From contig JAUIAG010000002.1 in NCBI GenBank assembly GCA_030425355.1, positions 1 through 56,853 of the forward strand: a DNA stretch of 56,853 bases, in the 5' to 3' direction. Origin of the DNA: Verrucomicrobiia bacterium (lineage in GTDB: Bacteria > Verrucomicrobiota > Verrucomicrobiia > Limisphaerales > JAJOIW01). The translations under genes and the position numbers were made by a program. Below the pieces are notes generated by a model. It had not been told where the DNA came from. It saw only the letters and a list, made by a program, of their open reading frames with translations, and did not search any database. Position 1 is the stretch's first letter, and every line of letters begins with the position of its first letter. Shown here piece after piece: positions 2,790 to 49,336 of the stretch.

Positions 2790-2922
2790 GAGATAGGTTG
2801 GAATTCCCCGCAAATCCCCTCCAGCAAGCCTAGCTGCGGCTTGAGGGGGTGGCGAGCGGAAATGCAGGACGGCGGAGTCCCCGCTTTTCCTCCTGAGGCG
2901 TGTAGGATAAAATCCGGATATT

Positions 2923-4407
2923 ATGCCAGTGCCGGTTATATCAGTGAAGGAGATGCGGGAATGGGAATCCCGCACATGGGATTCGGGCATCCGGGAAAAG
3001 GATGTGATAGATCAGGTGGGAAGGCGGATTGCCGGATGGATTGGTGATCATATTCCGTCCGGCAGTCGCATTGTGCTGCTGGCGGGCAAGGGAAACAACG
3101 GGGCAGATGTGAGGGCTGCTTCCGAGGCACTTCCGGATGACATCTTCCAGGTCCTGACTCTGGAGGCCAGGGAACCGAAGGCTGCCATTCAAAGACTTGA
3201 GTCGCTGAGACAGACTCCGCCGGATCTGATCGTGGATGGATTATTCGGCATCGGCCTGAATGGCGGACTGAGCGGTGAATGGAAAAAGCTGGTTGAACTG
3301 ATCAACTGGTTTGAGGTGCCGGTGCTCAGTATAGACTGTCCTTCGGGTCTGAACACGGACAGCGGCGAAGTGGAGACAGAGGCTGTTCGCGCCACATGGA
3401 CGCTGACGATCGGAGCGGTCAAGGAAGGACTGGTCAGCCCGAAAGCGGCACCCTGGACCGGCCGGCTTCTCCTCGCCGCACACGTCGGGCTGCATCCCGA
3501 CGGCCCCAAATCACACTCAAAACTTTCATGGACCTGCAATGAGGACTTCGCGGAGCGGCCAGCTCACCACCATCGGGCCATTCAGGGCCACAAGGGCAAC
3601 TACGGTCATGCCCTGATTGTTGCCGGAAGCCCGGGATACAGTGGCGCGGCCGTTCTGGCCGCACGGGCGGCCCAGGTGACTCAACCGGGGCTTATCTCAG
3701 TTCTGACCGTCGGTGACTCATGGATCCCGGTGTCCTCCAATCTCCTTGCGCCAATGGTCCACCGATTCACCCCTCATATTCTGGATGAGGTGCGGACGAG
3801 GGCGACATCGATTCTCATTGGCCCGGGACTGGCAAGCCCGGAAGCGAGAAACTATGTCTACCCGGCACTGCAGGACATCTGGACACATGCGGACATCCCG
3901 GTGGTGGTCGATGCCTCGGCGCTGGACTGGATCCCCAGCGGCCCGGTGGAAACGGACTCACTTCGGGTCATCACGCCGCATCCCGGGGAAGCTGCACGAA
4001 TGCTTCACCGCTGCGGTGATACAGAATCGACGCCGAACGCAGACCGCCTACACACGGCTGAAAGCCTTTCATCGCTGTTTGGTTCAGCGACCGTGGTGTT
4101 GAAGGGAAACCAGACCCTGACCTTCTCGCCCGCTCACCAGCGCACCTTCATCAACCCGACAGGAAATCCACACCTTGCTCAAGGCGGGGCAGGAGATGCT
4201 CTCGCCGGGCTGATTGCCGGCGCACTGGCGCATCCGGCGACGCGGATGGACAGAGACCTTTCCCTGCACCAGATCCTGCGATCCGTATGGCTCCATGGGG
4301 CAGCCGCCGACTCACTGCAATTCGAATCACTGGCCTGGACCATTGACGATCTGCTGGAACAACTCAAGGTGCCACCCATTCAGCAGGTCATGGTCTCCCC
4401 GGACTGA
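2923..4407 (+). CDS. nnr: Bifunctional NAD(P)H-hydrate repair enzyme (epimerase + ADP-dependent dehydratase)
   Basis: YjeF N-terminal motif GKGNNGADV. C-terminal carbohydrate-kinase motifs HKGNYGHALIVAGSPGYSGAAVLAARAA and GGAGDALAG. Confidence 0.9.
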   Translation: MPVPVISVKEMREWESRTWDSGIREKDVIDQVGRRIAGWIGDHIPSGSRIVLLAGKGNNGADVRAASEALPDDIFQVLTLEAREPKAAIQRLESLRQTPPDLIVDGLFGIGLNGGLSGEWKKLVELINWFEVPVLSIDCPSGLNTDSGEVETEAVRATWTLTIGAVKEGLVSPKAAPWTGRLLLAAHVGLHPDGPKSHSKLSWTCNEDFAERPAHHHRAIQGHKGNYGHALIVAGSPGYSGAAVLAARAAQVTQPGLISVLTVGDSWIPVSSNLLAPMVHRFTPHILDEVRTRATSILIGPGLASPEARNYVYPALQDIWTHADIPVVVDASALDWIPSGPVETDSLRVITPHPGEAARMLHRCGDTESTPNADRLHTAESLSSLFGSATVVLKGNQTLTFSPAHQRTFINPTGNPHLAQGGAGDALAGLIAGALAHPATRMDRDLSLHQILRSVWLHGAAADSLQFESLAWTIDDLLEQLKVPPIQQVMVSPD

Positions 4408-4442
4408 GACTTTTATTCCGACAGGAACTACAATTTTAATCG

Positions 4443-5330
4443 ATGGAAAAAGGAATGCACAATTCCGGAGGGGACAGTCGGACAGTCCTTGTCGGGCTCA
4501 TGGCCAACATCCTCCTTGCCTGTATTAAACTGATTTCAGGGATCCTTGGCCATTCCTACGCACTGGTTGCGGATTCCGTGGAATCACTGGTGGATGTTCT
4601 CGGATCGATAGTGGTGTTCGGCGGTATCAAAATTGCCGAGAAGGATTCCAATGATCAGTTTCCATATGGTCTTGGAAAGGCAGAGGGTCTGGCGGCATTT
4701 GTCGTGGGGCTGATTGTCATCCTCGCGAGTATCGGCATTGCGGTTGAAGCCATCAGCGAGATCCTGCGCCCGCACCAGGCTCCGGAGCCGTGGACATTGA
4801 TTGTTCTGATTGGTGTCATAGTGACCAAGGAAATCCTCCATCTGCTGGCACGTCGGGCCTCGCGGAAATCCGGAAGCCTTGCCATGAGCGCTGACGCCTT
4901 TCATCACAGAGCTGACTCATTAACCTCGATGGCCGCGGCGATCGGGATTTCAGTAGCGATTTTCGGTGGCCCGGAATGGGCGGCAGCGGATGACTGGGCG
5001 GCTCTCTTCGCTTCAGCCATCATCCTCTATAACGGAATCTCCATCGCCAGAAGCGCCTCACTTCATCTTCTGGATACCAGCGCGGATTTGGAAACGATTG
5101 AATCCATCCGGGCCGCCGCTCATGGCGTTGATGGAGTCATCGATATAGAAAAACTTCTGGTGAGAGCCTCTGGAACAAAACTCTTTGTCGACATCCACGT
5201 CCACGCCGACCCTGAAATGACACTCGCCGCAGCGCACCGCCTTGGCGGTATCGTCAAGTCCGCCATACAGGCTTCCCGAAGCGATGTTTCAGGGGTCCTT
5301 GTCCATATGGAACCTGCTGGAGAAGAGTGA
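4443..5330 (+). CDS. Cation diffusion facilitator (CDF) family metal efflux transporter
   Basis: Six predicted TM segments, with ALVADSVESLVD and HHRADSL metal-site motifs and a C-terminal cytoplasmic domain. Confidence 0.85.
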   Translation: MEKGMHNSGGDSRTVLVGLMANILLACIKLISGILGHSYALVADSVESLVDVLGSIVVFGGIKIAEKDSNDQFPYGLGKAEGLAAFVVGLIVILASIGIAVEAISEILRPHQAPEPWTLIVLIGVIVTKEILHLLARRASRKSGSLAMSADAFHHRADSLTSMAAAIGISVAIFGGPEWAAADDWAALFASAIILYNGISIARSASLHLLDTSADLETIESIRAAAHGVDGVIDIEKLLVRASGTKLFVDIHVHADPEMTLAAAHRLGGIVKSAIQASRSDVSGVLVHMEPAGEE

Positions 5331-5338
5331 AAGGCACA

Positions 5339-6250
5339 TCAGGGGTTGCTCCCAGAATCAGGATAAAGACTGGATTCAGTTCGATAGGCAGTTATTTCAA
5401 TTGGACTGGTTTCGTCACTGAGGAGCGTGAACAGTTCAGGGTCCCGGAGGATTGACTGAATGGATGTCGGGCTGCCATCGAGGAGGCACGAATCAGCGAT
5501 AAGCCGGATGCCATGGCTGTAGTCGGCGTACCAGATGACATGCCCGGCATAGACTGGTTGGATCGGTCTGCCGCCAGGGAGATGCCATCCGTATATCACC
5601 ACACGATCCTTCCGGTCATGGATCATACCGGCAAGAACAACGTCCTTTTTGTGGCCGGCGATGATGGAACATGACTCCCGGTCAGGGCCCATGGCTTCCA
5701 TCTGTTGGTGAATGATCCGGTTGTGTTGCACGAAAACCGGAACGGTTGTCATTTGTGGACCTGGAGGAATTGGCTGCGGCTCAAGCTTGCAGGTAGAGGC
5801 CCTGTAGATTTCATCGACAATCACCCGTGTCGGCAGAGTGCAGCCCAAACGGTCAGCCAGTTTCTGGCCAAGAATGGGCGTCATGGGAACAAGCAGATAG
5901 TCTTCATCGGATCCAAGGCACATATAGTCAGGGGCCACTTTGATATTCACCACTCTCGCCACGCCGTTCTTATCGGTACGGTGAATCAGAATGGATCTGA
6001 AATCACGCAGAAACTCCGGGACATTGCCCCTGATGAATTCCTGGAAGAGACGCTGCTCCCTTTGTTGAAGGGGGAGGTCCTGAAGAACTCCGGACAGTTC
6101 AGCGCCGCCGGCAGCACCGGCTGGCCGGTCCGGAATGTCAAGGCGCCAGACCGGACTTTCCGATTGTGCTCCCGCTCCGGGGATGCCAAAGGCACCGACG
6201 ACAGCAGGCATCAGGAGCGCTATCAGTTTGTTTGTGAACCGTGTGAGCAT
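5339..6250 (-). CDS. Hypothetical exported protein
   Basis: 303 aa ORF with an N-terminal signal-like segment (LIALLMPAVVGAFGIPGAGAQ). No family recognised. Confidence 0.55.
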   Translation of the reverse strand: MLTRFTNKLIALLMPAVVGAFGIPGAGAQSESPVWRLDIPDRPAGAAGGAELSGVLQDLPLQQREQRLFQEFIRGNVPEFLRDFRSILIHRTDKNGVARVVNIKVAPDYMCLGSDEDYLLVPMTPILGQKLADRLGCTLPTRVIVDEIYRASTCKLEPQPIPPGPQMTTVPVFVQHNRIIHQQMEAMGPDRESCSIIAGHKKDVVLAGMIHDRKDRVVIYGWHLPGGRPIQPVYAGHVIWYADYSHGIRLIADSCLLDGSPTSIQSILRDPELFTLLSDETSPIEITAYRTESSLYPDSGSNP

Positions 6251-15308: not shown

Positions 15309-15421
15309 GCTTTTGCTGTCTGTCGGGGAAAATGTCACACGCCTGAACCAGCTTATGTGTTCACGGAACGCACTGAAAGAAGGTCGGGCGGATGGTGGCT
15401 GTCAGTCACGGAATACCTCGC

Positions 15422-17251
15422 TCAGTCTTCGACCGGGACCACCAGATTATCCATGATAAACGATTTGCGGACCGGGGTGTTCTTGCCCATGTAAAAATCG
15501 AGAATTTCACGGGTATCGGTGCGGCGGGCAAACTCAATCTGACTCAGCCGCATGTCACGGCCGATAAAGGCTCCAAACTCACTGGGGGAAATTTCCCCCA
15601 GGCCCTTGAATCGGGTGATTTCATGGCCGCGGCCCAGCTTTTTAATGGCCTCGTCCTTTTCCTTTTCGGAGTAGCAGTAGATGTTCTCCTTTTTGTTCCT
15701 CACCCGGAAGAGCGGTGTCTCGAGGATGAAGAGATGTCCGCGCTGGATAATTTCCTCAAAAAACTTGAAGAAGAAAGTGATGAGGAGATTGCGGATGTGC
15801 ATGCCGTCGACATCGGCGTCGGTGGCGAGAATGATGCGGGAATAGCGCAGCCCGTCGATGCCATCCTCGATGCCGAGTGCCTTCATCAGGTTGAACATCT
15901 CGTCATTTTTGTAGAGGGCGTCGCGTTTCAGATCCCAGACATTGAGAGGCTTGCCCTTGAGCGTGAAGATCGCCTGGCAGTTGGGATCGCGGTTGGAGGC
16001 GATGGGGCCCGCCGCAGAGGCACCCTCAGTCAGGAAAATCATGGTGTCCCAACCGCGATTCTTTTTGAAGTCGAGATGGTTTTTGCTGTCCCGGAGCTGA
16101 GGGACTCGGATGGCAACAGCCTTGGAACGTTCGCGGGCCATCTTCTTCACCTGCTGCAGTTCCTTCCGCAGCTGCTGGGTGTCCTCGACCTTCTGGATCA
16201 GTTTTTCGGCAACGTCGCGGTTCGTGTGCAGATGCTGCAGGATGATCTCGCGGACACGGTTGACCAGTTCCGTCCGAATTTCGGTGTTGCCCAGTTTGTT
16301 CTTGGTCTGGGATTCGAACATCGGGTCCTGAAGACGGATGGCAATCGCTCCAACCATGGATTCCCTGACGTCGTCCCCCTCGAACTTGCCCTTGGCATAC
16401 TCATTGACTCCTTTGAGGATGCCCTCGCGGAATGCACTCAGATGAGTCCCGCCATCCGAAGTGAACTGGCCATTGACGAAGGATTGAAAATTCTCGCCAT
16501 ACCGGCTGCGGCTGTGCGTGAGGGCAAACTCAAGCGTGCGGTCGGAAAAATAGATGGGCTCGTAGAGCTGATCTCCATCGAGTTCCTCCGCGATGAGATC
16601 CAGCAGGCCCTTTTTTGAATGGAATTTTTTTCCGTTGAAGAGAATTGTCAGCCCGGAGTTGAGATAGGCGTAGTGCCGCATCCGTTTCTCGAGATGCTCC
16701 TCCCGGAAGGCGTATTTTTTAAAGATTTTCGGGTCGGGGGAGAAGCAGACGAAGGTTCCGTCCGGCTCGTGCGCGTCGTCGCCGTCGACCTCCTCCAGCA
16801 GCTCGCCCCGCTCGAAGGTGGCTTCCTTGTATTTGCCGTCGCGGTAGCTGCGGACAATAAACTCACTGGAAAGGGCATTGACGGCCTTGGTTCCGACACC
16901 ATTCAGTCCGACGCTGAACTGAAACACCTCGTCGTTGTATTTTGCCCCGGTGTTGATCTGGGAGACGCAGTCAATCACCTTGCCCAGGGGAATTCCACGA
17001 CCGAAGTCCCGGACCATGACCACCTCGTCCTCAACGGTGATCTCGATCTGCCTGCCGTGGCCCATGATGTATTCATCGATGGAGTTGTCGACGACCTCTT
17101 TCAATAAAATGTAGCAGCCGTCATCGTAATGTGTCCCGTCACCGATCCGGCCAATATACATACCGGTCCGCAGCCGGATGTGCTCCAGCGGCGACAGGGT
17201 CTGTACCTTGCTCTCGTCGTAAACTGCCTTTTTTGCCTTTGCCTCAGCCAT
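15422..17251 (-). CDS. parE: Type IIA topoisomerase subunit B (ParE-like)
   Basis: GHKL ATPase N-terminus (HIRLRTGMYIG, EVVDNSIDE, GLNGVG) and Toprim block (LTEGASAAG, ILATDADVDGMHI). Confidence 0.9.
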   Translation of the reverse strand: MAEAKAKKAVYDESKVQTLSPLEHIRLRTGMYIGRIGDGTHYDDGCYILLKEVVDNSIDEYIMGHGRQIEITVEDEVVMVRDFGRGIPLGKVIDCVSQINTGAKYNDEVFQFSVGLNGVGTKAVNALSSEFIVRSYRDGKYKEATFERGELLEEVDGDDAHEPDGTFVCFSPDPKIFKKYAFREEHLEKRMRHYAYLNSGLTILFNGKKFHSKKGLLDLIAEELDGDQLYEPIYFSDRTLEFALTHSRSRYGENFQSFVNGQFTSDGGTHLSAFREGILKGVNEYAKGKFEGDDVRESMVGAIAIRLQDPMFESQTKNKLGNTEIRTELVNRVREIILQHLHTNRDVAEKLIQKVEDTQQLRKELQQVKKMARERSKAVAIRVPQLRDSKNHLDFKKNRGWDTMIFLTEGASAAGPIASNRDPNCQAIFTLKGKPLNVWDLKRDALYKNDEMFNLMKALGIEDGIDGLRYSRIILATDADVDGMHIRNLLITFFFKFFEEIIQRGHLFILETPLFRVRNKKENIYCYSEKEKDEAIKKLGRGHEITRFKGLGEISPSEFGAFIGRDMRLSQIEFARRTDTREILDFYMGKNTPVRKSFIMDNLVVPVED

Positions 17252-17429
17252 AAACAACTCGACTCGTCAGGGCCGGTTCCAAGGAAATCCGGGAAATTGG
17301 CCCATACCCACATACCCCCGGAAGTCTCGGTCTATCAACACTTTTCTCGCCGCATCCGGATATCCACCATGCCGTCACTGTGAGTGCGGCAGATGATTTT
17401 GCGATTGTTATTACCGGTGGATGTGAGGG

Positions 17430-18743
17430 ATGAATAAGTCCGGCATGAGAATTCTGGTCATAGGCAGCGGAGGGCGGGAGCACGCCCTTACCTGGAAACT
17501 GGCGCAGTCCCCGCGGGTATCGGAAATCGTCTGTGCGCCCGGCAACGGGGGCATGGGGGCGGAGACAGTGAAATCCAGCGGCAGGCAGGTGGTCTGCGAG
17601 GCTGTGGCCGCCACCGACATTGACGGAATGCTCGGGCTGGCCCGGAAAATCCGGCCCGACCTGACGGTGGTGGCTCCCGACGACCCGCTGGCCATGGGTA
17701 TGGTCGACCGGCTCACCGGAGAAGGGTTCCGCGCATGGGGCCCGACCCGCAATGCCGCCCGATTTGAATGGAGCAAGGGGTTCTCGCAGGAATTCATGGA
17801 CCGCCATGGAATTCCCACCGCCAGATCGCAGGTCTGTGAATCCCCCGAAGCAGCGCTGAAATTCGCCGATGAGCTGGAAGGTAAAGTGGCCGTAAAGGCG
17901 GACGGGCTCGCCCTCGGCAAAGGCGTGATTGTGTGTGGATCGGCCGCCGAGGCCCGGGCGGCCATCCAGTCAATCATGGTCGACCGCGATTTCGGAGCTG
18001 CGGGCAGCCGCGTGGTGATCCAGGAGAGGCTGTATGGAATGGAAATTTCTCTCCACGCGTTTTGTGACGGGAGGACATGGAAGGCCTTCCCCTCCTCTCA
18101 GGACCACAAGGCGGCCTATGACGGCGACAAGGGCCCCAACACCGGCGGGATGGGCACTTATTCTCCCGCCCCTTTTGTCGACCCGCACGAATTTGACCGG
18201 ATAGCAGCCGCCATCCTCGACCCGTGGATGGAAGGCTGCCGCAGGGAAGGGATCGACTACCGCGGACTTATCTACCCGGGCATTATGCTCACCGACAACG
18301 GCCCAAAAGTCATCGAGTTCAACTCGCGCTTCGGGGATCCGGAAACACAGTGCTACCTTCCGCGCCTGGAAAATGATCTCCTTGATCTGATGGATGCCTG
18401 CGTCGACGGTACTCTCGATAGCATCCGGGCCGTATGGGCTCCCCATGCCACCGTATGCGTGGTGATGGCTTCCGGCGGTTATCCACAGGCCTACGAAAAG
18501 GGTAAGGTCATCGTGGGAATCGATGAGGCGGAGGCCCTGGACGGCGTCAAAGTCTTTCATGCGGGAACACGGCTGCGCGAGGACGGGGCTCTGGTGACCT
18601 CCGGAGGACGCGTCCTCGGGGTCACGGCAACCGCAATGGGCCTCGAAGCCGCCCGCAACCGGGCCTACGAGGCCGTGGAACGCATCCGTTTCGAAGGAGC
18701 CTTCTATCGCCGCGATATTGCGGCCAAGGCTTTTCAGGGGTAA
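17430..18743 (+). CDS. purD: Phosphoribosylamine--glycine ligase
   Basis: MRILVIGSGGREHAL and an ATP-grasp body, ending GGRVLGVTA. The start could instead be the ATG at 17445. Confidence 0.95.
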   Translation: MNKSGMRILVIGSGGREHALTWKLAQSPRVSEIVCAPGNGGMGAETVKSSGRQVVCEAVAATDIDGMLGLARKIRPDLTVVAPDDPLAMGMVDRLTGEGFRAWGPTRNAARFEWSKGFSQEFMDRHGIPTARSQVCESPEAALKFADELEGKVAVKADGLALGKGVIVCGSAAEARAAIQSIMVDRDFGAAGSRVVIQERLYGMEISLHAFCDGRTWKAFPSSQDHKAAYDGDKGPNTGGMGTYSPAPFVDPHEFDRIAAAILDPWMEGCRREGIDYRGLIYPGIMLTDNGPKVIEFNSRFGDPETQCYLPRLENDLLDLMDACVDGTLDSIRAVWAPHATVCVVMASGGYPQAYEKGKVIVGIDEAEALDGVKVFHAGTRLREDGALVTSGGRVLGVTATAMGLEAARNRAYEAVERIRFEGAFYRRDIAAKAFQG

Positions 18744-18844: not shown

Positions 18845-19933
18845 ATGACTGACATGGAGGGACATTTGCGAAGCATTTTCAACGCACCGGCGATCGCGTT
18901 GCTCTTACTGACACTGACAGCTTCTTCCCGCGGCAGCGCCGCCGAACTGCAGCGATTCGACAATCTGATCCAGCTGCTTGAGAAGAACCTCTACCAGTTT
19001 GACAAGGAAGCAGTGGACAGAGCAGCCGTCAACGGCCTCCTCGCAGAGCTGGACGGTCAGGTCGTGGTGCTTCAGGCGCCGGGCGGTGACACCGGAACCG
19101 GAGCAGGTGACTCCGTTCCGTCACTCCGGAAAAGCAGCCTCCTCGAAGACTCTTTTGTCTACCTGCAGCTTGATTCCATCGAAGCCGGCACCGATCAGGA
19201 AATCCGTCAGGCCCTGACCGAGGCCATGGAGGAAACCCCGGAGACATCCGGTATCATCCTCGATCTCCGCTTCGCGGAGGGCAGAGCCTATGAATCCGTT
19301 CCCTCAGTCATCGGCCTTTTTCACAAGGATCCCAGCCCGCTCTTCAGTATGAAGGGGGAGAATTACAGCAGCCGCCCCTCCGGGGAGACGGTGGATATGC
19401 CGATGGCCATCCTCGTCAATACGGAGACATCGCGGGCTGCCGAGCTGGCGGCCGCCTCGTTCAAGCAGATTCGCAAGGCGATTGTCATCGGTCAGAAGTC
19501 CAGCGGCCAGACCTTCTATTTTGAACAGTTCAATCTGGAAGGCGGCGGCACGATTGAAGTTGCCCGAAGCCCGGTGAACATGGCGGACGGCACACCCCTT
19601 TCCCAGCGCGGCGTCGAGCCGGACATCGCGATCGACGCGCCACTGGACATCCAGCGCAAGTATCTGGACGACCCGTACTACCGCGACCCGGAACAGGAGG
19701 CCCCCGGGAGGTCAATGACGGAAGCGGACCTCATCCGCCTTAAAAATCAGCAGATAGCCCGCGAGGCCGGAGAATTCGAGAAGCTTCAGGAACCCGGCGG
19801 GGAAGCAATGGACCAGGAAGATGACCCTGGCACCGCCCGCAAAACTCCATCCGCCATCACCGACCCCATCCTCGCCCGCGGAATCGACTTCCTCAAGGGA
19901 GTCCGGTTCCTCCGGCAACTGAAAGGACGCTGA
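18845..19933 (+). CDS. S41 (C-terminal processing peptidase)-like exported protein, catalytic dyad apparently degenerate
   Basis: Signal peptide. S41 scaffold blocks GIILDLRFAEGR, AILVNTETSRAAELAA, AIVIGQKSSGQT and RGVEPDIAI. Confidence 0.65.
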   Translation: MTDMEGHLRSIFNAPAIALLLLTLTASSRGSAAELQRFDNLIQLLEKNLYQFDKEAVDRAAVNGLLAELDGQVVVLQAPGGDTGTGAGDSVPSLRKSSLLEDSFVYLQLDSIEAGTDQEIRQALTEAMEETPETSGIILDLRFAEGRAYESVPSVIGLFHKDPSPLFSMKGENYSSRPSGETVDMPMAILVNTETSRAAELAAASFKQIRKAIVIGQKSSGQTFYFEQFNLEGGGTIEVARSPVNMADGTPLSQRGVEPDIAIDAPLDIQRKYLDDPYYRDPEQEAPGRSMTEADLIRLKNQQIAREAGEFEKLQEPGGEAMDQEDDPGTARKTPSAITDPILARGIDFLKGVRFLRQLKGR

Positions 19934-20079: not shown

Positions 20080-22224
20080 ATGAAAACAATTTTATTTGTG
20101 TGTACCGGAAATGTCTGCCGCAGTCCGATGGCAGAGGGATTGTTCAAGAGGGCCATCGCCGACCTCTCCTCAGGTGAATACAGGGTCCTTTCCGCCGGCA
20201 TCGATGCTCTGGATGGCCAGCCCCCTTCCCTCAACGCGGTGGAAGCCACCCGTGAGCTGGACGTCGACATCACCAGTCAGCGCAGCGCCCGCCTCACGCC
20301 CCAGATGGTCCGTGAGGCCGATCTCATCTTCGGGATGACCATGAATCATGTCATGGCCGTCACTCATTTTTTCCCGGAAGCCGCCAACCGCACTTTCCTC
20401 GTGCGGGAATTTGACCAGACCATCCCGGCTTCCGAAAAAGAAATCGCAGACCCCATAGGCGGATCCCTGGAAATCTACCGCCTGTGCCGGGACCAGATAA
20501 ACCAGGGAATCCATTCAATCATTCAAGAACTACAATCATCCTTCTCGATGCAGGAAGCGCCTTCCAACAAAATTGCCATAGGTTCGGATCACGCCGGATT
20601 TAACCTCAAGGAAACCATCAAAAAGCACCTCGCGAAGGCGGGGATGGACATCATCGATGCCGGAACCGGCTCCAGTGAGTCCACCGACTATCCGGATTAT
20701 GCAGCGACTGTCACCCGCCTGATCCGCGACCGCGAGGTCAGCCGGGGGATCCTGGTCTGCAGCTCCGGGATTGGCATGTGCATGGCCGCCAACAAGGCGC
20801 CGGGGATCCGCGCCGCCCTGCCCGTCAATGCTGAAGCGGCGGCTCTGTCGCGCCAGCACAATGACGCCAATGTACTGTGCATCGGCCAGAAGTTCACACC
20901 GGAGGCCGATGCCCTCCAGATGGTCAACGCCTTCCTCAGCTCCGAATTCGAGGGCGACCGCCATTCCCGCCGCATCAGAAAGTTCGGTGATGCGGTCATC
21001 GCCGCTGCCGACCCGGACATGGCGGTTCTCATTGAAAAGGAACGCCTGCGCCAGCAGCATCATATCGAACTGATTGCCAGTGAGAACTTCACCAGCCCCG
21101 CGGTCATGGCGGCTCAGGGATCAGTCCTCACCAACAAATACGCCGAGGGCTATCCCGGCAAGCGCTGGTACGGTGGCTGTGAATTCATCGACGAGATTGA
21201 GACCCTGGCAATCGAACGGGCCAAAGCCCTCTTCGGTGCCGAACACGCCAACGTGCAGCCCCACTCGGGAAGCTCCGCCAATATGGCGGTTTACTTCGCC
21301 TTCCTGAAACCCGGTGACCGTATCCTCACCATGGACCTTTCCCATGGCGGACACCTCACCCACGGCAACGCCGCCAACTTCTCCGGGATTTTCTACGACG
21401 TCATCCACTATGGCGTGCGCAAAGAGGATGAACGCATCGACTACGATCAGCTTGCCGCCATGGCCCGGGAGCACAAACCGAAGATGATCACTGTCGGTGC
21501 CAGCGCCTACCCGAGACAGATCGACTTTGCCCGCATGGGTGAAATTGCCCGCGAAATCGGTGCCCTGCTCCTCGCCGATATCGCCCACATCGCCGGACTG
21601 GTGGCGGCGGGGGAACACCCGTCGCCGATTGAACATGCCGACTTCGTCACCACCACCACCCACAAGACCCTCCGCGGTCCGCGTGGCGGACTCATCCTCT
21701 GCAAGGCGGAACACGCCAAGGCGATTGACTCCAAGGTCTTCCCGGGGATTCAGGGCGGCCCTCTCGAACACGTGATTGCCGCCAAGGCAATCTGTTTCCT
21801 CGAAGCAACCGGCCCGGAATTCAAGGAATACCAGTCGCAGGTCCGCAGGAATGCCGCAGCACTTGCTGACGGGCTGTCCCGCAACGGATTCAGACTGGTC
21901 AGCGGCGGCACTGACAACCACCTGCTGCTCGTCGATGTTCACGAGAAGGGCCTCACCGGCAAAGACTGTCAGATCGCTCTCGACCAGGCCGGCATTACCC
22001 TCAACAAGAACACCATCCCCTTTGAGACCCTTTCACCCTTCAAGGCCAGCGGCATCCGCATAGGCTCACCCGCCGTCACCACCCGCGGCATGAAGGAACA
22101 CGAAATGCTGGCGATCGCCGACATGATCTCCGAAGTCCTCGCCGATATCAAAAACACTGAAACCCAGACAAGAGTCCTCCAGCGGGTGCACGAGCTGACC
22201 AGCAAATTCCCATTACCCTATTGA
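20080..22224 (+). CDS. glyA: Triple-domain fusion: LMW protein phosphatase (YwlE-like) + ribose-5-phosphate isomerase B + serine hydroxymethyltransferase
   Basis: One uninterrupted 714-codon frame. [17 protein letters not shown] at residues 1-150. [23 protein letters not shown] and GDRHSRRI at about 164-303. [26 protein letters not shown] and [11 protein letters not shown] at about 305-714. Confidence 0.85.
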
Positions 22225-22347: not shown

Positions 22348-23988
22348 ATGCCTAAAACCACGACCAAGACAGTTAAGAGAAAAACTGTTACCAAAAAGTC
22401 TGCAGCTAAAATCAAGAATGAGGAAGAGATAGCGGAGCTTCCACTGGAAGGAGTAGAGGAAGCGGATTCCGAAGCAAAGAGCACCCGTACCCGGACGACC
22501 AAAAAGGCGACCCGGAAAAAGTCCGCCCGGAAAACACGGGCCGGCTCAGATGATTCCATCAATGCAGACGATGAGTCGGCGGATGAGGCCGGAGGCATCG
22601 TGGACGGCCCGACTGACATTCCTCCCGGCGTCACCGCCGAAACCAGGGTGAATCCCGAGGAACTGCCATCCGATGACCCGGAGGAGGTGGAGATCAGTCA
22701 GCAGATGGAGCCCACCGATCTGGGCGACCCGAGAACAGTCAATATCTCGGCGCTCCAGAGCATGGCCATCAATGAACTGAATGACATCGCCAAGGACCTC
22801 GGGATCCAGAACTTCGGCACCATGAAAAAGCATGAAGTGATCTTTGCGATCCTTCAGAAAAATGCCGAACGCAAGGGGACACTGTTTGCAGAGGGTGTTC
22901 TCGAAATTCTCCCGGAAGGATTCGGGTTCCTCAGATCACAGAGCTTCAACTACCTCCCCTGCCCGGAAGACGTCTACGTTTCCCCGTCACAGATCCGTCG
23001 TTTTGACCTGCAGACCGGCGACCTGATTGCCGGGCAGATCCGTCCACCGAAGGAAAAGGAACGCTTCTTTGCCCTGCTCAAGGTCGAGGCGGTCGACAAG
23101 GAGGACCCGGAAAAGGCCAAGGACAAAACGCATTTTGATAACCTCACGCCGCTGTTTCCCAATGAGCGTTTCATCCTGGAAACCAGCCCCGAGGATCTTT
23201 CCGCCCGGGTGCTTGACCTTGTCTCACCTATCGGAAAGGGAACCCGCGGACTCATCGTCGCCCCGCCCCGAACCGGGAAAACGGTGCTGATGCAGAATCT
23301 CGCCAACTCCATCCTCAGGAACAGCCCCGAGTGCTACCTCTTTATCCTTCTGATTGACGAGCGTCCGGAGGAAGTAACCGACATGGAGCGCACCTGTAAG
23401 CCCGCCGAAGTGGTCAGCTCCACCTTTGACGAACCGCCGGAACGCCACATCCAGGTCGCCGAAATGGTCATCGAAAAGGCCAAGCGAATGGTCGAACACA
23501 AGAAGGATGTGGTGATCCTCCTGGATTCCATCACCCGACTGGCCCGCGCCTACAACACCGTCCAGCCGCACTCCGGAAAAATCCTCTCCGGCGGTGTGGA
23601 TGCCAATGCACTTCACAAGCCCAAACGGTTCTTCGGTGCCGCCCGAAACATCGAGGAAGGCGGGTCCCTCACCATCATCGCCACAGCCCTGATTGATACC
23701 GGATCAAGGATGGATGAGGTTATTTTCGAGGAGTTCAAGGGCACCGGTAACATGGAAGTCCACCTCGACCGCTCTCTGGTCGACCGCCGAATCTTCCCCT
23801 CCATCAATATCGAACACTCCGGAACCCGTAAGGAGGAACTGCTCTACCATCCGCAGGAATACGACAAGGTCGTCGTCCTCCGCAGAGCACTCACCGGAGT
23901 CCCCGCCGTCGAATCGATGGAACTCCTGCTCAACAAACTCAAGAAAACAAAAAACAATATCGAGTTCCTCCTCAGCCTCGGAAAATAA
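22348..23988 (+). CDS. rho: Transcription termination factor Rho with a long charged N-terminal extension
   Basis: C-terminal RecA-like core ([17 protein letters not shown] and the Walker B-like block [11 protein letters not shown]) and an RNA-binding domain. The first roughly 120 residues are K/R/E/D/T-rich low complexity. Confidence 0.95.
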
Positions 23989-24037: not shown

Positions 24038-24068
24038 GCCGGTGTCGCCATTCGACACCGGCTTTTTT
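24038..24068 (+). terminator. Rho-independent terminator after rho
   Basis: 10-bp stem GCCGGTGTCG/CGACACCGGC with a 5-nt loop, followed by TTTTTT. Confidence 0.75.
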
Positions 24069-24577: not shown

Positions 24578-26296
24578 ATGAATGTCGGGAATGGATCGAA
24601 TCCACATGACACGGCCGTAAAATGGGCATGGCAGGGAATCGGCAAACAGTTTCATTATTGGGTTCTCTTTCTGTTGTTTTCTCTGAGCTGTCTCCTTGCA
24701 GGAAGAACTCTGGCGGTTGAAATTGAATACAGTGGCGCCCTGCTGAATTTGACCGATCTCAGCGGTTCATTTCCGATTGGCAGTCCATTCACACTGTCCA
24801 TGGATGTGGATGAGATGGTGGCGGATACTTCTGAAGAAGCTGATCGCGGTTTTTATCCCGGGTGTATCCGGGCAGTGGAGTTGAGCCTTGCGGATAGTGG
24901 ATTCTCACTGGCGGGGTCGCCCGGAGAACAAAATGAATGGGAAATTCGTCCCGGTGCATCCCTCGGGGAACCCGCCTCAAGGGCATTCTGCCCCATCACC
25001 GACGGCGACGGGCGGATGCTTGAGATAGAGGTCCGGGCCTATCCCAAGGCCGGGCAGCCGCTGGGGACCAAAGCACTGACGGGCGGGTTTGAGGAAGGGA
25101 ATTTCCGACTTGTCGAAGTGATTGTCTATGAAGTGAAAACTGATCCCGTTCTGAGGGCCACCTACAGGGTTACTTACGGTTTCGGGTGGGTTATGGCAAA
25201 TGCTCCAGGCCGGTCAGCAACAGGGCCGGAGCCCCTGGCATCTGATGGCGTGGGATTTGAATTCATGGCTGTCCTCGGAGACTCCTTGTCGGCTTCGCGA
25301 CAGGAGAGGAATTCCACGACCAGGTCTCCTGACTACTTCAATGGTGGCTATACCAACGGTCCGGTATGGGTCCAGTTTCTTTCGTGGGCCCTTGGAATTC
25401 CATACCGGGAGTCTTTGAACTCCTCTTTGTTTCTGGAGTATTCCCTCCCGGTGGATGAAGCCATGGAAACGGTTTCAGGCCTGAATGGACTGGCGGTATT
25501 CTGGGACAACGGATCATTTTATGCGCCAATCATCCTTCTGGCCTTTGGTCTTGATGATCCGGACCTGTTTGAGTCGATTCACGCCGTTGTGCAGCTGAAA
25601 GCCCTGCGGGCACTGGAATGGGCCCACGCCAGCGGCATCGCGGATATTCTTATACTCAAGGGAGCGGATATCAGCTTTGCCCCTGGAATTGTCGACCTCT
25701 TAAGCGAGGAAAACCGGAGCAAGCTGAATGAAACCACCAGCACCAGTAATGAACTCCTCGAACAGTATCTTCAGGAATATGTGCCCGTCCTTCTTCCGGG
25801 CATGCGCATGACAGTTCTCGATCCGAATGAGTATCTCCAGCCCATCCTCAACGATCCCTCTGCCTTTGGGTTTTCGACTGTGAGCGATGTCTACCTGATG
25901 GATCATGAACGCCCTTACGATCAGGCATTTGGTGTTCCGGGTACCGACTATTTCTTCTGGGACAGCCTTGCACCATCCTCAAAAGTTCATTCCCATCTGG
26001 CCCACTTCGTGATGGGAGACGCATTTCCGGACCATCCCTACCACCAGCAGGGGCTGCGGATCAGTGTCCCTATGATAATGGATGAACCTGATGCCGGGAC
26101 AACTCTCTGGCTCTACGGGGCCAATGCACCAATTGATTCACCCCTTCGGCTCCTTCGCACACCTTCCATCGGCTCACAACCCGCCGACGCGGAACAGGAG
26201 AACCTGAGCACTTTCAATAACACTTCTCCGATGATTTTTCTTCAGGCTCCTGTTCCAGAAGAATACTCGTCCGCGTTTTTTCATATTTCAGATTGA
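24578..26296 (+). CDS. Exported GDSL/SGNH-like protein with an N-terminal extra domain (block V His absent)
   Basis: N-terminal TM/signal segment. Block I VLGDSLS, block II GGYTNGPVWVQFLSWALGI, and block V-like YFFWDSLAPS. Confidence 0.6.
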   Translation: MNVGNGSNPHDTAVKWAWQGIGKQFHYWVLFLLFSLSCLLAGRTLAVEIEYSGALLNLTDLSGSFPIGSPFTLSMDVDEMVADTSEEADRGFYPGCIRAVELSLADSGFSLAGSPGEQNEWEIRPGASLGEPASRAFCPITDGDGRMLEIEVRAYPKAGQPLGTKALTGGFEEGNFRLVEVIVYEVKTDPVLRATYRVTYGFGWVMANAPGRSATGPEPLASDGVGFEFMAVLGDSLSASRQERNSTTRSPDYFNGGYTNGPVWVQFLSWALGIPYRESLNSSLFLEYSLPVDEAMETVSGLNGLAVFWDNGSFYAPIILLAFGLDDPDLFESIHAVVQLKALRALEWAHASGIADILILKGADISFAPGIVDLLSEENRSKLNETTSTSNELLEQYLQEYVPVLLPGMRMTVLDPNEYLQPILNDPSAFGFSTVSDVYLMDHERPYDQAFGVPGTDYFFWDSLAPSSKVHSHLAHFVMGDAFPDHPYHQQGLRISVPMIMDEPDAGTTLWLYGANAPIDSPLRLLRTPSIGSQPADAEQENLSTFNNTSPMIFLQAPVPEEYSSAFFHISD

Positions 26297-40056: not shown

Positions 40057-40178
40057 CCGGAACAGGAGACATCGGCATGAGATGAATATGCTTGAGGGCC
40101 CAGCCCGATGGTCACGCCATAATGATAGAGGACTGGCTCCATGACACCATGGCAACCATGAAAAAACGCGAAACGCGG

Positions 40179-41714
40179 CTAATCCCCCCAAATCTGCCGG
40201 TCCAGGGTCCGGTACTGAACGGCTTCGTAAAGGTGTGGGACGTCAATGTTTTCACTGGCGTCGAGGTCGGCGATGGTGCGGGCAACTTTGAGAATACGGT
40301 CGTAGGCACGGGCACTGAACTTGAGCTGACTCATGGCGGTTTTCAGCTCTTTGAGCACCGCCGGCCCCAGCTGGCAGTGATGCTGGATTTCGCGGGCACC
40401 CATCTGGGCATTGCATCGGCAGCATGGGTTGTCCCCGAACCGCCGGTTCTGAATTTCGCGTGCCCTGATGACCCTTTCGCGGATCTGCGCGGAGGACTCC
40501 CCGTCGGGTCGGGCGGCCATGTCCTGGAACCTCACCTTGGGCACCTCGACATGAATGTCAATGCGGTCGAGCAGTGGACGCGATATTCTGCCAAGGTATT
40601 TCTGGATTTCCCGCGAGGTGCTCCCGGATTCGGCCGGCATCTTCCCATCGGGAGTGGGATTCATGGCTGCCACCAGCATGAATCGTGCAGGGAAGGTGAA
40701 TGTGCCGGCCGCGCGGGATATGGTGACTCTGCCCTCCTCGAGCGGCTGTCTCATGGTTTCCAGGACACTGCGTTTGAATTCCGGAAGCTCATCGAGGAAG
40801 AGAACACCGTGGTGTGCCAGCGAGATCTCGCCCGGAGCCGGGTTTGCGCGCCCGCCGAGGAGTCCGGCGTCACTGGCGGTATGATGCGGTGTCCGGAACG
40901 GACGCCGTGTGATGAGTGGCTGCCTTGTAGGGAGTGTTCCGGCGATGCTGTGCACTTTGGTGGTTTCAAGAGCCTCCATCAGCGTCAACGGAGGGAGGAT
41001 AGTCGGCAGTCGCTTGGCCAGCATGGACTTGCCGGTTCCCGGAGGGCCTATCATCAGTATATTATGGCTGCCGGAGGCGGCGATCTCCATGGCACGCTTG
41101 ACGCTTTCCTGGCCCTTGACTTCACGGAAGTCGAGAGGGCTGTCGGACTGCTCATTCTCAAACAGGCTTTCCACCCGTATTTTAAGGGGCTTGACTTCCT
41201 CGCGGCCGCGAATGAACTCCACGGCCTGCCTCAGGTCATGGATTGGAAAGACATTCAGACCTTTGACCACGGCAGCTTCGGGTGCCTTGGGTGGCGCCAC
41301 AAGCAGACCGCGACAATGATGCCGCCGGGCTTCCAGGGCAACGGGCAGAACGCCCCGGGCCGGCCGGAGGCGGCCATCAAGAGCCAGTTCCCCGAACATC
41401 CACCAGCCCTCCAGATCGGCGTTGGTCAAATGCTGCCCCGTCGCCGCTATCATGGCCAATGCAATTGCCAGATCGAAACACGGCCCCTCCTTCCTCTTGT
41501 CGGCCGGTGCCAGACTTATGGTGGTGTGACCCACGGGGATGGTGAAACCGCTGTTGTTCATGGCAGACAGGACCCTGTCCTTGGATTCCCGAACCGCCGC
41601 ATCCGGCAGGCCCACAACACTTATTTTCGGATCACCACCGGAGACAAAAACTTCCACCTCCACTTCGTAGGCATCCACACCATAGACACTCGCACTCCTG
41701 GATTTTCCCAGCAT
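40179..41714 (-). CDS. comM: YifB/ComM-family Mg-chelatase-like AAA+ ATPase
   Basis: Lon-protease-like N-terminal domain, Walker A MIGPPGTGKSMLA, the GVLFLDELPEF block and a C-terminal ChlI-like domain. Confidence 0.9.
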   Translation of the reverse strand: MLGKSRSASVYGVDAYEVEVEVFVSGGDPKISVVGLPDAAVRESKDRVLSAMNNSGFTIPVGHTTISLAPADKRKEGPCFDLAIALAMIAATGQHLTNADLEGWWMFGELALDGRLRPARGVLPVALEARRHHCRGLLVAPPKAPEAAVVKGLNVFPIHDLRQAVEFIRGREEVKPLKIRVESLFENEQSDSPLDFREVKGQESVKRAMEIAASGSHNILMIGPPGTGKSMLAKRLPTILPPLTLMEALETTKVHSIAGTLPTRQPLITRRPFRTPHHTASDAGLLGGRANPAPGEISLAHHGVLFLDELPEFKRSVLETMRQPLEEGRVTISRAAGTFTFPARFMLVAAMNPTPDGKMPAESGSTSREIQKYLGRISRPLLDRIDIHVEVPKVRFQDMAARPDGESSAQIRERVIRAREIQNRRFGDNPCCRCNAQMGAREIQHHCQLGPAVLKELKTAMSQLKFSARAYDRILKVARTIADLDASENIDVPHLYEAVQYRTLDRQIWGD

Positions 41715-42242
41715 AGATATTCTGTATTCGTTAAAAACGGCCCGCCATCATGCGGTCTCAGATCGTGGAGAATTGCATTCCACTTCCCCAATTGCTCCGA
41801 ATCAGCCGGGTTGACCTGTCAGAAGAGTCAGCCTCCCTTCACTCAGGAATGCATCCGGAAAACAGCATCAAAGTTACCGGATGCAGAGAATCTCAGGAGT
41901 CATGATTGTTCCAATCGAAACACAGGGCACACAGCCAGACTGGTGAACACACCCGCCAAGCTCTTCTCACATCACTCATACACACACGCATCAGAGCATG
42001 TGAATGGATAATAAAATTTGATCTCCGTGTCAATGCCCCCGGCGAATTCAAAATGGTGACAGGTACATTCTTCCTGTGGTGAGGGGTGCTGAATTCCGGG
42101 TTGGGGTTCATGTAACACTTCCCGATTTATGGGGTCTGAATGTTTGAGGTCCACGAAATGGACCGCGATCCAGATCCGCGGCAATGGCTGAATCACCCGC
42201 TTCGGAAACGGAGTGGATTGATTGGTCCGGAAATCGCTCACA

Positions 42243-48322: not shown

Positions 48323-49336
48323 TCAGGAGCGGACGGCTATATTGCCTGACCGGTGGTCATGAAGCAGTTTGACATCCGCCTCAACCATGAGTCTGACAAG
48401 GTCGGCAAAGCGTGTTTTAGGCTCCCAGCCCAGTTTTTCCTTCGCCTTGGCATAATCCCCGATGAGGATATCCACTTCAGCAGGGCGGTAATACCGGGGA
48501 TCGATTTCCACATAATCCTGGTAATCGAGGCCGACATGACCGAAAGCGATTTCGAGGAATTCCCGGACGGAATGGGTCTCGTTGGTGGCGACGACATAAT
48601 CATCACCCTGTGGCTGCTGGAGCATGAGCCACATGGCCTCGACATATTCCTTGGCGTATCCCCAGTCGCGCTTGGCGTCGAGGTTGCCCAGGAAAAGTTT
48701 CTTCTGCAATCCGGCTTTTATGTGGGCCACGGCGCGGGTGATTTTTCTGGTGACAAAAGTCTCTCCACGGCGTGGTGATTCATGGTTGAAGAGGATGCCG
48801 TTACTGGCATGCATGCCGTAGGACTCGCGGTAATTCACCACTGCCCAGTAGGAAAAGACCTTGGCGCAGGCATAGGGACTGCGGGGGTAGAACGGTGTGG
48901 TCTCGGTCTGGGGTATTGCCATGACCTTGCCATACATCTCACTGGAGCTGGCCTGGTAAAAGCGCGGCTGGATTCCGGCCTGACGGATGGACTCCAGAAG
49001 ACGGATGGTTCCCGTGCCGTCGACATCAGCGGTGTATTCAGGGGCATCAAAGCTCACGCGGACATGGCTCTGGGCTGCTAGGTTGTAAACCTCATCCGGC
49101 TGAATTTCAGCAATAAGCCGTGAGAGACCACTGCCGTCGCTCAAGTCCCCGTAGTGGAGCTGGAGGTGCCGGCCATGCTTCTGGGGGCCTTCGTAAAGCT
49201 CGTCCAGTCTTCCGGTATTGAATGTGCTCGCTCGCCGGATTATGCCATGGACTTCGTATCCTTTTTCTATCAGAAGTTCCGCCAAATACGATCCATCCTG
49301 GCCGGTGACTCCGGTGATTAGTGCCTTCTTAGTCAT
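48323..49336 (-). CDS. gmd: GDP-mannose 4,6-dehydratase
   Basis: [66 protein letters not shown]. Confidence 0.9.

Follow-up and report, generated by a model that had tools for sequence, protein, structure and literature searches.

Locus organization and domain content

The window analyzed here is a 56,853-nucleotide stretch of a Verrucomicrobiia genome. In it, a single open reading frame (ORF) joins three enzyme domains: a low-molecular-weight (LMW) phosphatase, a ribose-5-phosphate isomerase of the RpiB type and a serine hydroxymethyltransferase (SHMT). Coordinates of the ORF, of its parts and of the neighboring genes are collected in Table 1. The ORF list and the translation confirm one frame that opens with ATG and has no internal stop, as a previous sequence-only reading of this DNA had described; the motifs quoted there (CTGNVCRS, DP, the RpiB motifs and THKTLRGP) are all present in the translation.

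Table 1. Positions of the three-domain ORF, its parts and its neighbors in the window
Feature	Position	Strand	Remarks
purD (phosphoribosylamine-glycine ligase)	17430..18743	+	Pfam GARS_N/A/C; upstream, co-oriented
Peptidase S41 family gene	18845..19933	+	between purD and the fusion
LMW phosphatase - RpiB - SHMT ORF	20080..22224	+	714 aa; simple arithmetic gives ~78 kDa; stop codon counted in the end coordinate
LMW phosphatase domain	20089..20511	+	residues 4-144; Pfam PF01451
Phosphatase P-loop C8-T-G-N-V12-C-R14-S15	20101..20124	+	residues 8-15; nucleophile C8
General-acid DP motif D124-P125 (DPIGGS)	20449..20454	+	in the phosphatase domain
Linker 1	20512..20571	+	residues 145-164; length and sequence vary; predicted flexible
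RpiB domain	20572..20982	+	residues 165-301; D170, H171, catalytic C227 (nt 20758-20760), H260, N261, R294, R298
Junction 2, FGDAVI	20983..21000	+	residues 302-307
SHMT domain	21001..22221	+	residues 308-714; PLP lysine K529 (nt 21664-21666)
rho	22348..23988	+	downstream, co-oriented

The three domain identities given by the sequence-only reading proved correct: Pfam profiles are covered almost completely, NCBIfam cut-offs are passed, and the scores are far above chance. The phosphatase domain matches LMWPc (E = 9.5e-29; 100.9 bits for a cut-off of 23.2; profile positions 1-140 of 144), the RpiB domain matches LacAB_rpiB, PF02502 (E = 9.1e-54; 1-137 of 138), and residues 308-683 match SHMT, PF00464 (E = 1.9e-164; 2-399 of 399). 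The RpiB domain reaches 170.3 bits with the rpiB equivalog model TIGR01120 (cut-off 138.65; profile 1-139 of 143), and the NCBIfam LacA, LacB and DerI models all stay under their cut-offs on it. It aligns over its whole length with the RpiB of PDB entries 3HE8/3PH3 (E = 1e-40), and C227, S229, D170, H171, H260, N261, R294 and R298 line up with the solved RpiB structures 3HE8 and 1O1X. The catalytic Cys and the Asp-His, His-Asn and Arg ligands presumably have the roles known from E. coli RpiB. For the SHMT domain, NF000586 scores 635.8 bits (cut-off 335; residues 311-712, profile 1-403 of 404), the alignment with Staphylococcus aureus SHMT (3PGY) runs end to end (E = 2.8e-164), and the PLP-binding lysine sits in a T-T-T-H-K motif.

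The sole strong terminator-like hairpin on the + strand of the region lies at 24038-24062, after rho. An Rfam scan of the whole window at the gathering threshold gave no known RNA element, riboswitches for glycine, THF or ZTP included. The order purD-S41-fusion-rho is kept at six other loci (L081, L083, L002, L003, L005 and L006); at L010 purD and rho are kept and a match to S41 is absent, and at L018 purD and S41 lie farther upstream. As a neighbor, purD also recurs beside unfused versions of the genes.

Conservation of the three-domain architecture

The sequence-only reading had proposed to look for the same architecture in related genomes, and this search was strongly positive. The best 120 matching protein clusters (90% identity clusters, P0001-P0120) all show the three domains in the same order, with 67-83% identity to the window protein, 98-100% coverage and similar lengths (697-750 aa, mostly 715-725). 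These clusters are independent, being drawn from NCBI, JGI, ENA and Logan assemblies. Among 80 species-representative genome loci retrieved by a scan of genome contigs, in which 52% was the best junction-region identity among the matches listed, 24 carry the three-domain ORF. Their labels are Pedosphaera, Limisphaera, Verrucomicrobiales, Chthoniobacterales or Spartobacteria, and a few of the loci have labels that look mis-binned. The closest relative among the best 120 matches is 83% identical, which places the window in a Verrucomicrobiota species that these collections lack, and the nearest members of this set share the purD-S41-fusion-rho context. In a rough neighbor-joining (NJ) distance tree, whose deep branches give no count of independent fusion events, the window protein groups with the metagenome proteins P0001, P0002 and P0004.

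All catalytic residues that were checked are invariant in the 146 fused sequences, the only exceptions being gene calls that are cut short and a single degenerate paralogue. D124 and P125 of the phosphatase are found in 146/146, and the Cys, Arg and Ser of the P-loop in all 140 sequences that cover the site. D170, H171, C227, H260, N261, R294 and R298 of RpiB are likewise present in 146/146, position 229 being Ser or Thr. The PLP lysine is kept in 145 of the 146, and the SHMT catalytic residues vary only in the degenerate paralogue (P0234). An apparent loss of the P-loop in the 697-aa relatives P0003-P0005 was ruled out: these forms are short because of gene-call start errors, and an in-frame upstream ATG restores an intact P-loop.

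The fusion is thus real and common to many Verrucomicrobia, but it is not new. Hou et al. described the same architecture in 2008 for Minf_1669 of Methylacidiphilum infernorum V4 (Biol Direct 3:26, PMC2474590). The window protein belongs to this Minf_1669-type family, its one ORF carrying these three domains in identical order and aligning with the family from end to end; its likeness to Minf_1669 itself, from an organism of a different order, is taken from the published description. The architecture carries little weight as a discovery, having been published in 2008 and being present in many database entries.

The phosphatase domain and its predicted specificity

With its N-terminal CX5R(S/T) P-loop, its DP acid loop and a full-domain profile match above threshold, the first domain is a member of the LMW phosphatase superfamily. 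Its nearest solved structures are 4EGS (E = 6e-24) and YwlE (1ZGG/4KK3, E = 5e-23); Wzb (about 1e-12) and mammalian LMW-PTP (about 1e-8) match more weakly. In its PDB deposition 4EGS, an LMW-PTP, is called 'Ribose 5-phosphate isomerase RpiB'. By overall sequence the domain is therefore closer to the YwlE clade than to the Wzb/Etp/PtpA type, and to that extent the label "YwlE-like" of the sequence-only reading stands. It shares with B. subtilis YwlE and S. aureus PtpB the LMW-PTP fold family, the CTGNxCRS P-loop with its second Cys and the DPxGG acid loop, and the genes of these two proteins also adjoin rpiB or glyA.

The label fails at the residue that sets phosphoarginine specificity. The fifth P-loop position, Thr in YwlE (Thr11) and PtpB, is Val12 in the window protein and Ile or Val in 135 of 140 fused sequences (75 Ile, 60 Val, 4 Thr, 1 Ser). 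In YwlE this Thr has been identified as the residue that makes the enzyme specific for phosphoarginine rather than phosphotyrosine, and T-to-I mutants lose phosphoarginine activity and gain phosphotyrosine activity (PMC7772506, PMC8001253). Since Val replaces this Thr, the domain is predicted not to be phosphoarginine-specific, unlike protein arginine phosphatases of the YwlE/PtpB type. The replacement by Ile or Val in the fused proteins is one small new point of this analysis. It occurs mainly in the fused Verrucomicrobiota lineage; Thr to Val is also seen in an unfused gene of Opitutales (L037). No Pfam match to the arginine-kinase family (the McsB partner) was obtained among the 42 ORFs of at least 150 aa scanned within the 57 kb window.

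An arsenate reductase of the pI258 ArsC type was also considered and rejected. The S. aureus enzyme needs a downstream redox pair, Cys82/Cys89; the window protein has no Cys between residues 14 and 135, hence no such pair, and the corresponding models score far below their cut-offs (NF010053, 61.7 bits for 215; TIGR02691, 52.5 for 174.3).

Linkers and predicted structure

An AF2 monomer model (pTM 0.54) consists of high-confidence domains, with a pLDDT of about 93 for the phosphatase, separated by low-confidence linkers; pLDDT falls below 50 at residues 154-161 (linker 1) and 294-303 (junction 2). A fixed inter-domain interface was sought in this model and no confident one was predicted. RpiB and SHMT active sites are each built across subunit interfaces, and inter-domain contacts formed only in an oligomer are compatible with a monomer model of this kind.

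Linker 1 has a column identity of 0.32 at residues 151-160, and from anchor to anchor it measures between 20 and 35 aa in the members of the family. Linker 2 measures 36 aa in 113 of the 146 sequences, the commonest form, and 30 aa in the window protein. This shortening by 6 aa distinguishes the window clade (with P0001-P0005) from the other proteins of the best 120, as does the absence of a methionine. The linker 2 consensus of the fused relatives includes KMET, its Met lying roughly where an ancestral glyA would have started; the window protein and its nearest relatives have FGD or LSD/LTD instead.

Origin of the fusion

The Bacillales string ywlC(tsaC)-ywlE-ywlF(rpiB)-ywlG-glyA-upp matches the window ORF in its three functions, their order and their orientation, and Macrococcus psychrotolerans (L072) has the order Sua5/TsaC, LMW-PTP, RpiB, DUF436, SHMT, UPRTase. 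The Bacillales genes differ in being separate, in the DUF436 gene that follows rpiB and precedes glyA, and in the Thr at the fifth P-loop position of the phosphatase. The sequence-only reading had proposed that a conserved neighborhood of adjacent genes is collapsed here into one polypeptide. The string and its order support this; adjacency is only nearly right, given the DUF436 gene that parts rpiB from glyA in Bacillales. The fusion looks like the collapse of an old string tsaC-ptp-rpiB-(DUF436)-glyA.

Partial fusions occur in several lineages. Two-domain PTP-RpiB proteins of Bacillota (L024, L025 and L036) have the same type of PTP-RpiB junction, lack SHMT and keep the P-loop Thr. RpiB-SHMT proteins, found in Akkermansia sp. 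(L045), Akkermansiaceae (L030), Roseibacillus (L080), Kiritimatiellia (cluster P0124) and Victivallales (cluster P0122), have the same RpiB-SHMT junction as the window protein but not its phosphatase domain; in the rough NJ tree, those from Verrucomicrobiota share an SHMT clade with the window protein. Roseibacillus encodes the phosphatase separately, in an upstream gene that keeps the frame and is set apart by one stop codon. Such same-frame junctions split by a single stop codon were found 13 times among unfused genes, the next ATG lying 0-9 nt after the stop in 7/13 and 21-36 nt after it in 3/13; one stop-codon substitution would therefore fuse the two genes. The family is a clean natural case of gene fusion through stop-codon loss in a conserved operon; all the intermediate states can still be seen in living lineages.

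The most probable reading, to which we give a probability of about 80%, is that of a vertically inherited Verrucomicrobiota housekeeping gene. Stop codons would have been lost between the tightly packed, co-oriented neighbors tsaC, LMW phosphatase, rpiB, (DUF436) and glyA, and the product would be a single chain of about 78 kDa in which flexible linkers connect three domains, each folded independently and catalytically competent. Each domain would run its usual reaction: the N-terminal one as a Cys-based LMW phosphatase, RpiB in the interconversion of ribose-5-phosphate (R5P) and ribulose-5-phosphate, and the PLP-dependent SHMT in that of serine plus tetrahydrofolate and glycine plus 5,10-methylene-THF. 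The benefit would probably lie in co-expression, at a fixed 1:1 ratio, of enzymes whose products supply nucleotide synthesis, R5P going into PRPP and glycine and C1 units into purines and dTMP. Co-expression is preferred to substrate channelling because RpiB and SHMT have no common intermediate. Other fusion partners of SHMT are DHFR and thymidylate kinase, which fits the nucleotide-synthesis theme.

Functional coupling and other explanations

The sequence-only reading had seen in the fusion a physical coupling of pentose-phosphate and one-carbon metabolism with a phosphatase, and Hou et al. drew the same functional-coupling inference from Minf_1669 (PMC2474590). In such a selected module the phosphatase would regulate RpiB, SHMT or a partner in cis, or the RpiB oligomer and the SHMT dimer would scaffold an assembly for purine precursors with PurD. 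That much of the phylum has kept the fusion and all its active sites, that linker 2 is nearly fixed in length and that purD recurs as a neighbor could mark a selected coupling of this kind, and the Thr to Ile/Val change could signal a new substrate. Against this, the change to Val is shared with the unfused Opitutales gene, the two metabolic enzymes have no intermediate to pass on, and linker 1 is variable. Metabolic channelling is unsupported by the structural model, since both linkers are of low confidence and no confident packing between domains is predicted. Nor is any pairing obligatory: in Planctomycetota and Omnitrophota the phosphatase has TsaC as its fusion partner, and at the Akkermansia and Roseibacillus loci it is absent or separate. 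Its union with TsaC elsewhere argues for a fusion of operon neighbors over a specific coupling. The physical coupling of the pathways is therefore not upheld, and we consider a selected functional module unlikely. In the literature searched, no activity, expression or oligomer data were found for any member of the fusion family; only the 2008 genome paper was found.

A more specific variant, which we regard as improbable, supposes that the phosphatase has been repurposed. Its new substrate would be a phospho-residue on the fused RpiB/SHMT or on PurD, or else a small phosphometabolite, and the protein would be a self-regulating node. This proposal would build on the Thr to Ile/Val switch in a domain that keeps a YwlE-like DPIGG acid loop and lacks the aromatic pair of classical phosphotyrosine phosphatases. 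If it were true, the three-domain protein would balance ribose-5-phosphate with the supply of glycine and one-carbon units for purine synthesis.

It is less probable still that the genes are fused at the DNA level only, internal initiation or proteolysis in the linkers freeing the phosphatase, RpiB and SHMT. The KMET methionine of the relatives, close to the presumed start of an ancestral glyA, would suit such a scheme, as would the finding that linker 2 contains one or more Met residues in 99/146 sequences and the ATG codons at residues 157 and 314 of the window protein, near both junctions. However, the KMET methionine is missing in the window protein and its nearest relatives, M157 is kept in only 11/146 sequences and M314 in 1/146, and neither a Shine-Dalgarno-like sequence ahead of either internal ATG nor a + strand promoter-like site within the ORF was found. 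Starts at M157 and M314 were rejected on account of this non-conservation.

An assembly or sequencing artefact, in which a lost stop codon or a frameshift falsely merged three genes, is effectively refuted: although errors of this kind do occur in metagenome-assembled genomes (MAGs), as in the frameshift-like break within the SHMT part of MAG locus L015, the architecture is uninterrupted in the best 120 independent clusters and the 24 species-representative loci, a protein with these three domains is described from the complete genome of the isolate M. infernorum V4 (PMC2474590), and the GC content across the ORF (0.53-0.64) is uniform and in the range of the flanking genes, with no sign of a chimeric join. 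The sequence-only reading had also held that the ORF was no simple sequencing error, and the independent assemblies bear this out.

Some consequences concern annotation. The three-domain nature of these proteins explains why they are named inconsistently, as 'ribose 5-phosphate isomerase B' or as 'glycine hydroxymethyltransferase', and why the gene calls of some are about 20 residues short, which drops the catalytic P-loop.

The three-domain ORF and its distribution

The sequence-only reading had described one ORF in which a low-molecular-weight phosphatase (PTP), RpiB and SHMT are fused. Both the ORF list and direct translation give an ATG start and 714 codons with zero internal stops, and every motif quoted in that reading was found in the translation. 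The Pfam and NCBIfam matches agree with the three domain identities; the Pfam profiles are covered almost completely, and scores with the NCBIfam models for LacA, LacB, DerI and ArsC are far under the cut-offs. Coordinates of these and the other features are collected in the table.

Coordinates of features in the window, in the encoded protein and in compared loci
Feature	Location	Coordinates	Remark
Fusion ORF	window, + strand	20080-22224	PTP-RpiB-SHMT
LMWPc	protein	residues 4-144	Pfam, E 9.5e-29
LacAB_rpiB	protein	residues 165-301	Pfam, E 9.1e-54
rpiB equivalog, TIGR01120	protein	residues 164-302	NCBIfam, 170.3 bits (cut-off 138.65)
SHMT	protein	residues 308-683	Pfam, E 1.9e-164
SHMT, NF000586	protein	residues 311-712	NCBIfam, 635.8 bits (cut-off 335)
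Phosphatase catalytic residues	protein	C8, R14, S15, D124, P125	invariant or nearly so, n=146
RpiB catalytic residues	protein	D170, H171, C227, S/T229, H260, N261, R294, R298	invariant or nearly so, n=146
SHMT catalytic residues	protein	Y354, E356, Y364, H425, D500, H528, K529 (PLP), R532, R660	invariant or nearly so, n=146
P-loop position 5 (V12)	window	20113-20115	Val
Sua5/TsaC-PTP ORF	L028, unclassified genome	2975-4168	directly upstream of rpiB
Sua5/TsaC-PTP ORF	L032, Omnitrophota	2836-3870	directly upstream of rpiB
Sua5/TsaC-PTP ORF	L052, Planctomycetota	2-1099	directly upstream of rpiB
Sua5/TsaC-PTP ORF	L065, Planctomycetota	123-1259	directly upstream of rpiB
Split three-domain ORF	L015, MAG	3695-5879	ORFs 3695-5632 and 5499-5879
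Region of the shortened gene call	L081, close relative	4935-5000	upstream in-frame ATG the likely start
Rho	window	22348-23988
Long ORF without Pfam match	window	15392-16618	overlapped by longer opposite-strand ORF 15422-17257
Long ORF without Pfam match	window	16619-17107
Long ORF without Pfam match	window	24578-26296
Long ORF without Pfam match	window	40092-42011
Long ORF without Pfam match	window	42222-43784
GDP-mannose 4,6-dehydratase family	window, - strand	47217-48215
GDP-mannose 4,6-dehydratase family	window, - strand	48323-49336
MBOAT acyltransferase	window, + strand	49815-51254

A search of 5.8 billion proteins was carried out and the best 120 matches were taken. Their lengths are 697-750 aa, their identity to the query is 67-83% over 98-100% of its length, and each contains the three Pfam domains. 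Where a name is given, it is "ribose 5-phosphate isomerase B" or "glycine hydroxymethyltransferase"; named sources are Verrucomicrobiota, Akkermansiaceae, Opitutaceae and Limisphaerales. An assembly artefact was rejected on this identical domain set and on the GC content, which is uniform over the ORF and the neighbouring genes. The matches come from independent assemblies (NCBI, JGI, ENA and Logan).

Genomes were then scanned, one per GTDB species, with a query alignment that runs across both junctions; 80 loci were listed and classified by which stop-to-stop ORF contains which window domain. The three domains lie in a single ORF in 24 of them (labels Pedosphaera, Limisphaera, Verrucomicrobiales, Chthoniobacterales and Spartobacteria, a few of these labels looking mis-binned). 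RpiB and SHMT are fused in 8 (Akkermansia sp., Akkermansiaceae, Roseibacillus, others), PTP and RpiB in 3 (Bacillota). Three separate adjacent genes were found in 9 loci (Macrococcus, Marinococcus, Opitutales, Omnitrophota, others) and rpiB directly followed by glyA in 18, from many phyla; the remaining classes are PTP with rpiB only (4) and rpiB only (14). In L015 the three-domain ORF is split inside the SHMT part with a frameshift-like overlap, which probably reflects either faulty assembly or pseudogene formation.

The architecture is not new. In 2008 Hou et al. (PMC2474590), describing the genome of Methylacidiphilum infernorum V4, already reported the three-domain protein Minf_1669 together with the inference of coupling, so both the observation and the interpretation of the sequence-only reading had been published. 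No mention of Minf_1669 or of an rpiB-glyA fusion was found in later papers of the literature searched, and the architecture is known and uncharacterised.

Origin of the fusion

Unfused homologues are packed extremely tightly. At 13 unfused junctions both ORFs are in the same frame with a single stop codon between them. The RpiB/SHMT junction of locus L039 reads ...GEAK[TAG]MNEQDRMARPLAEVDPDV, the PTP/RpiB junction of L029 has ...KEEK[TAG], and another example, from L061, reads [TAA]PYMSALTHVDPEIAAAIRRE. A single substitution in such a stop would yield a fusion of the window type, and would leave the old start Met behind in the linker. The consensus of fused Verrucomicrobiota has a Met ("KMET...") about 33 residues ahead of IELIASENF, roughly where a free-standing SHMT starts.

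The ywlE-rpiB-glyA neighbourhood invoked by the sequence-only reading is present in the same order in Macrococcus psychrotolerans, but the ancestral string is longer; in this species it runs Sua5/TsaC, LMW-PTP, RpiB, DUF436, SHMT, UPRTase, and DUF436 separates RpiB from SHMT. Which neighbours are fused differs by lineage. TsaC-PTP fusions occur in four of the 80 loci listed (table), PTP-RpiB fusions in Bacillota, RpiB-SHMT fusions in Akkermansia and in clusters that bear the names Kiritimatiellia and Victivallales, and the full three-domain fusion in most Verrucomicrobiota. In L028 the TsaC-PTP and RpiB-SHMT ORFs share a frame, with a single TAG between them. In a rough neighbour-joining tree of the SHMT parts, whose deep branches we do not trust, the main three-domain and two-domain forms of Verrucomicrobiota make up one clade with an unfused Opitutales gene as sister, and the window protein is nested among three-domain forms with the matches P0001, P0002 and P0004.

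Active sites and linkers

The alignment of fused proteins has 146 members, namely the window protein, the 120 matches, 22 ORFs from genomes and three representatives of 50%-identity clusters. All catalytic residues checked are invariant or almost so, with two exceptions. The P-loop columns are absent in six N-terminally truncated gene calls, and the PLP lysine and two other SHMT residues are missing from P0234, a divergent cluster with all three domains. This cluster (3 members, 683-702 aa) shows K to A at the PLP lysine and loss of the E57 and R363 equivalents; Pfam scores are normal for its RpiB and PTP domains but weak for SHMT (1e-37), and it may be a pseudo-enzyme paralogue. A true loss of the P-loop in some 697-aa relatives was considered and rejected as a gene-call error: the public calls of P0003-P0005 begin at an internal Met (MAEGLF...) and so lack about 20 residues, the catalytic CX5R P-loop among them; an upstream in-frame ATG, likely the true start, restores the motif.

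Linker 1, between phosphatase and RpiB, is the sole poorly conserved stretch (column identity 0.32 at residues 151-160), its anchor-to-anchor length varying from 20 to 35 aa. Linker 2, between RpiB and SHMT, measures 36 aa in 113 of the 146 sequences and 30 aa in the small clade of the window. Internal Met residues near the junctions are not conserved (M157 in 11/146, M314 in 1/146). The sequence read contains no Shine-Dalgarno-like sequence ahead of either ATG, and no promoter-like site was found on the + strand within the ORF.

Among solved structures, YwlE and 4EGS are close to the phosphatase domain and RpiB of PDB 3HE8/3PH3 to the second domain, and the SHMT domain aligns end to end with S. 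aureus SHMT (3PGY). The phosphatase domain is matched best by 4EGS, an LMW-PTP chain deposited as "Ribose 5-phosphate isomerase RpiB"; the name may go back to an annotated rpiB gene that was fused to it or lay next to it. An AlphaFold2 model of the window protein (115-sequence input) predicts three well-folded domains joined by low-confidence linkers: pLDDT is about 93 in phosphatase and RpiB, mostly above 85 in SHMT, and below 50 in both linkers and in some SHMT loops, which we infer to sit at the SHMT dimer interface. The pTM is only 0.54, and no inter-domain interface is confidently predicted in this model.

Phosphatase specificity

The label "YwlE-like" holds for the overall sequence, to which YwlE is closest, and for the DPIGG acid loop; it fails for the specificity determinant. 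YwlE, S. aureus PtpB and Drosophila DARP owe their phosphoarginine specificity to a Thr at P-loop position 5, and replacing it with Ile costs the enzymes their pArg activity and gives them activity on pTyr (PMC7772506, PMC8001253). Where YwlE has Thr, the window phosphatase has Val; Ile or Val is also the residue in 135 of 140 fused relatives. Among the 80 loci listed, Thr or Ser occupies this position in 16/18 stand-alone, TsaC-fused or PTP-RpiB phosphatases, and Ile or Val in 21/24 three-domain proteins. Fusion and the change do not always go together, since Val also occurs in an unfused Opitutales gene and Thr in two fused ones; the change thus tracks lineage, and the specificity determinant looks to have switched across the whole lineage. 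With Ile or Val replacing Thr, the prediction is that the domain does not serve as a dedicated arginine phosphatase. This substitution is the only point found here that is absent from the literature searched.

Function and genomic neighbourhood

The best-supported reading is that each domain performs its normal reaction and that the fusion fixes co-expression. A thematic link to nucleotide synthesis can be drawn. Ribose 5-phosphate leads to PRPP, SHMT is a source of glycine and one-carbon units, and the purD product uses glycine and the PRPP-derived amine. In the window purD is a co-oriented gene upstream of the fusion; the arrangement purD-S41-fusion-rho is retained by the closest relatives as well as in several further orders. 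An upstream purD also accompanies unfused versions, and upp follows glyA in Bacillales. The physical coupling of pathways proposed by the sequence-only reading finds no support either in the model, with its lack of a confident interface, or in the known reactions: classical channelling is implausible because RpiB and SHMT have no common intermediate. That a repurposed phosphatase regulates the fused RpiB and SHMT enzymes is considered unlikely. Other SHMT fusions were seen in the 50%-identity library, namely DHFR-thymidylate kinase-SHMT (P0134, 811 aa), DHFR-SHMT (P0145, 608 aa) and MeaB GTPase-SHMT (P0200, 728 aa).

Outside the fusion the window looks like any chromosomal region of PVC type. 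It contains no second SHMT, RPI, LMW-PTP or tsaC, and an Rfam scan of the whole window found no known RNA elements. The N terminus of Rho is extended by about 135 low-complexity residues with much Lys, Thr and Glu, and its Rho_N domain starts at residue 136. For five long ORFs, of 162-639 aa, Pfam gave no match at E <= 1e-5; the candidate among them that is overlapped on the opposite strand is marked in the table. Two adjoining GDP-mannose 4,6-dehydratase-family genes lie about 0.5 kb from an MBOAT acyltransferase gene, and may form with it a cluster for deoxy-sugar or polysaccharide modification.
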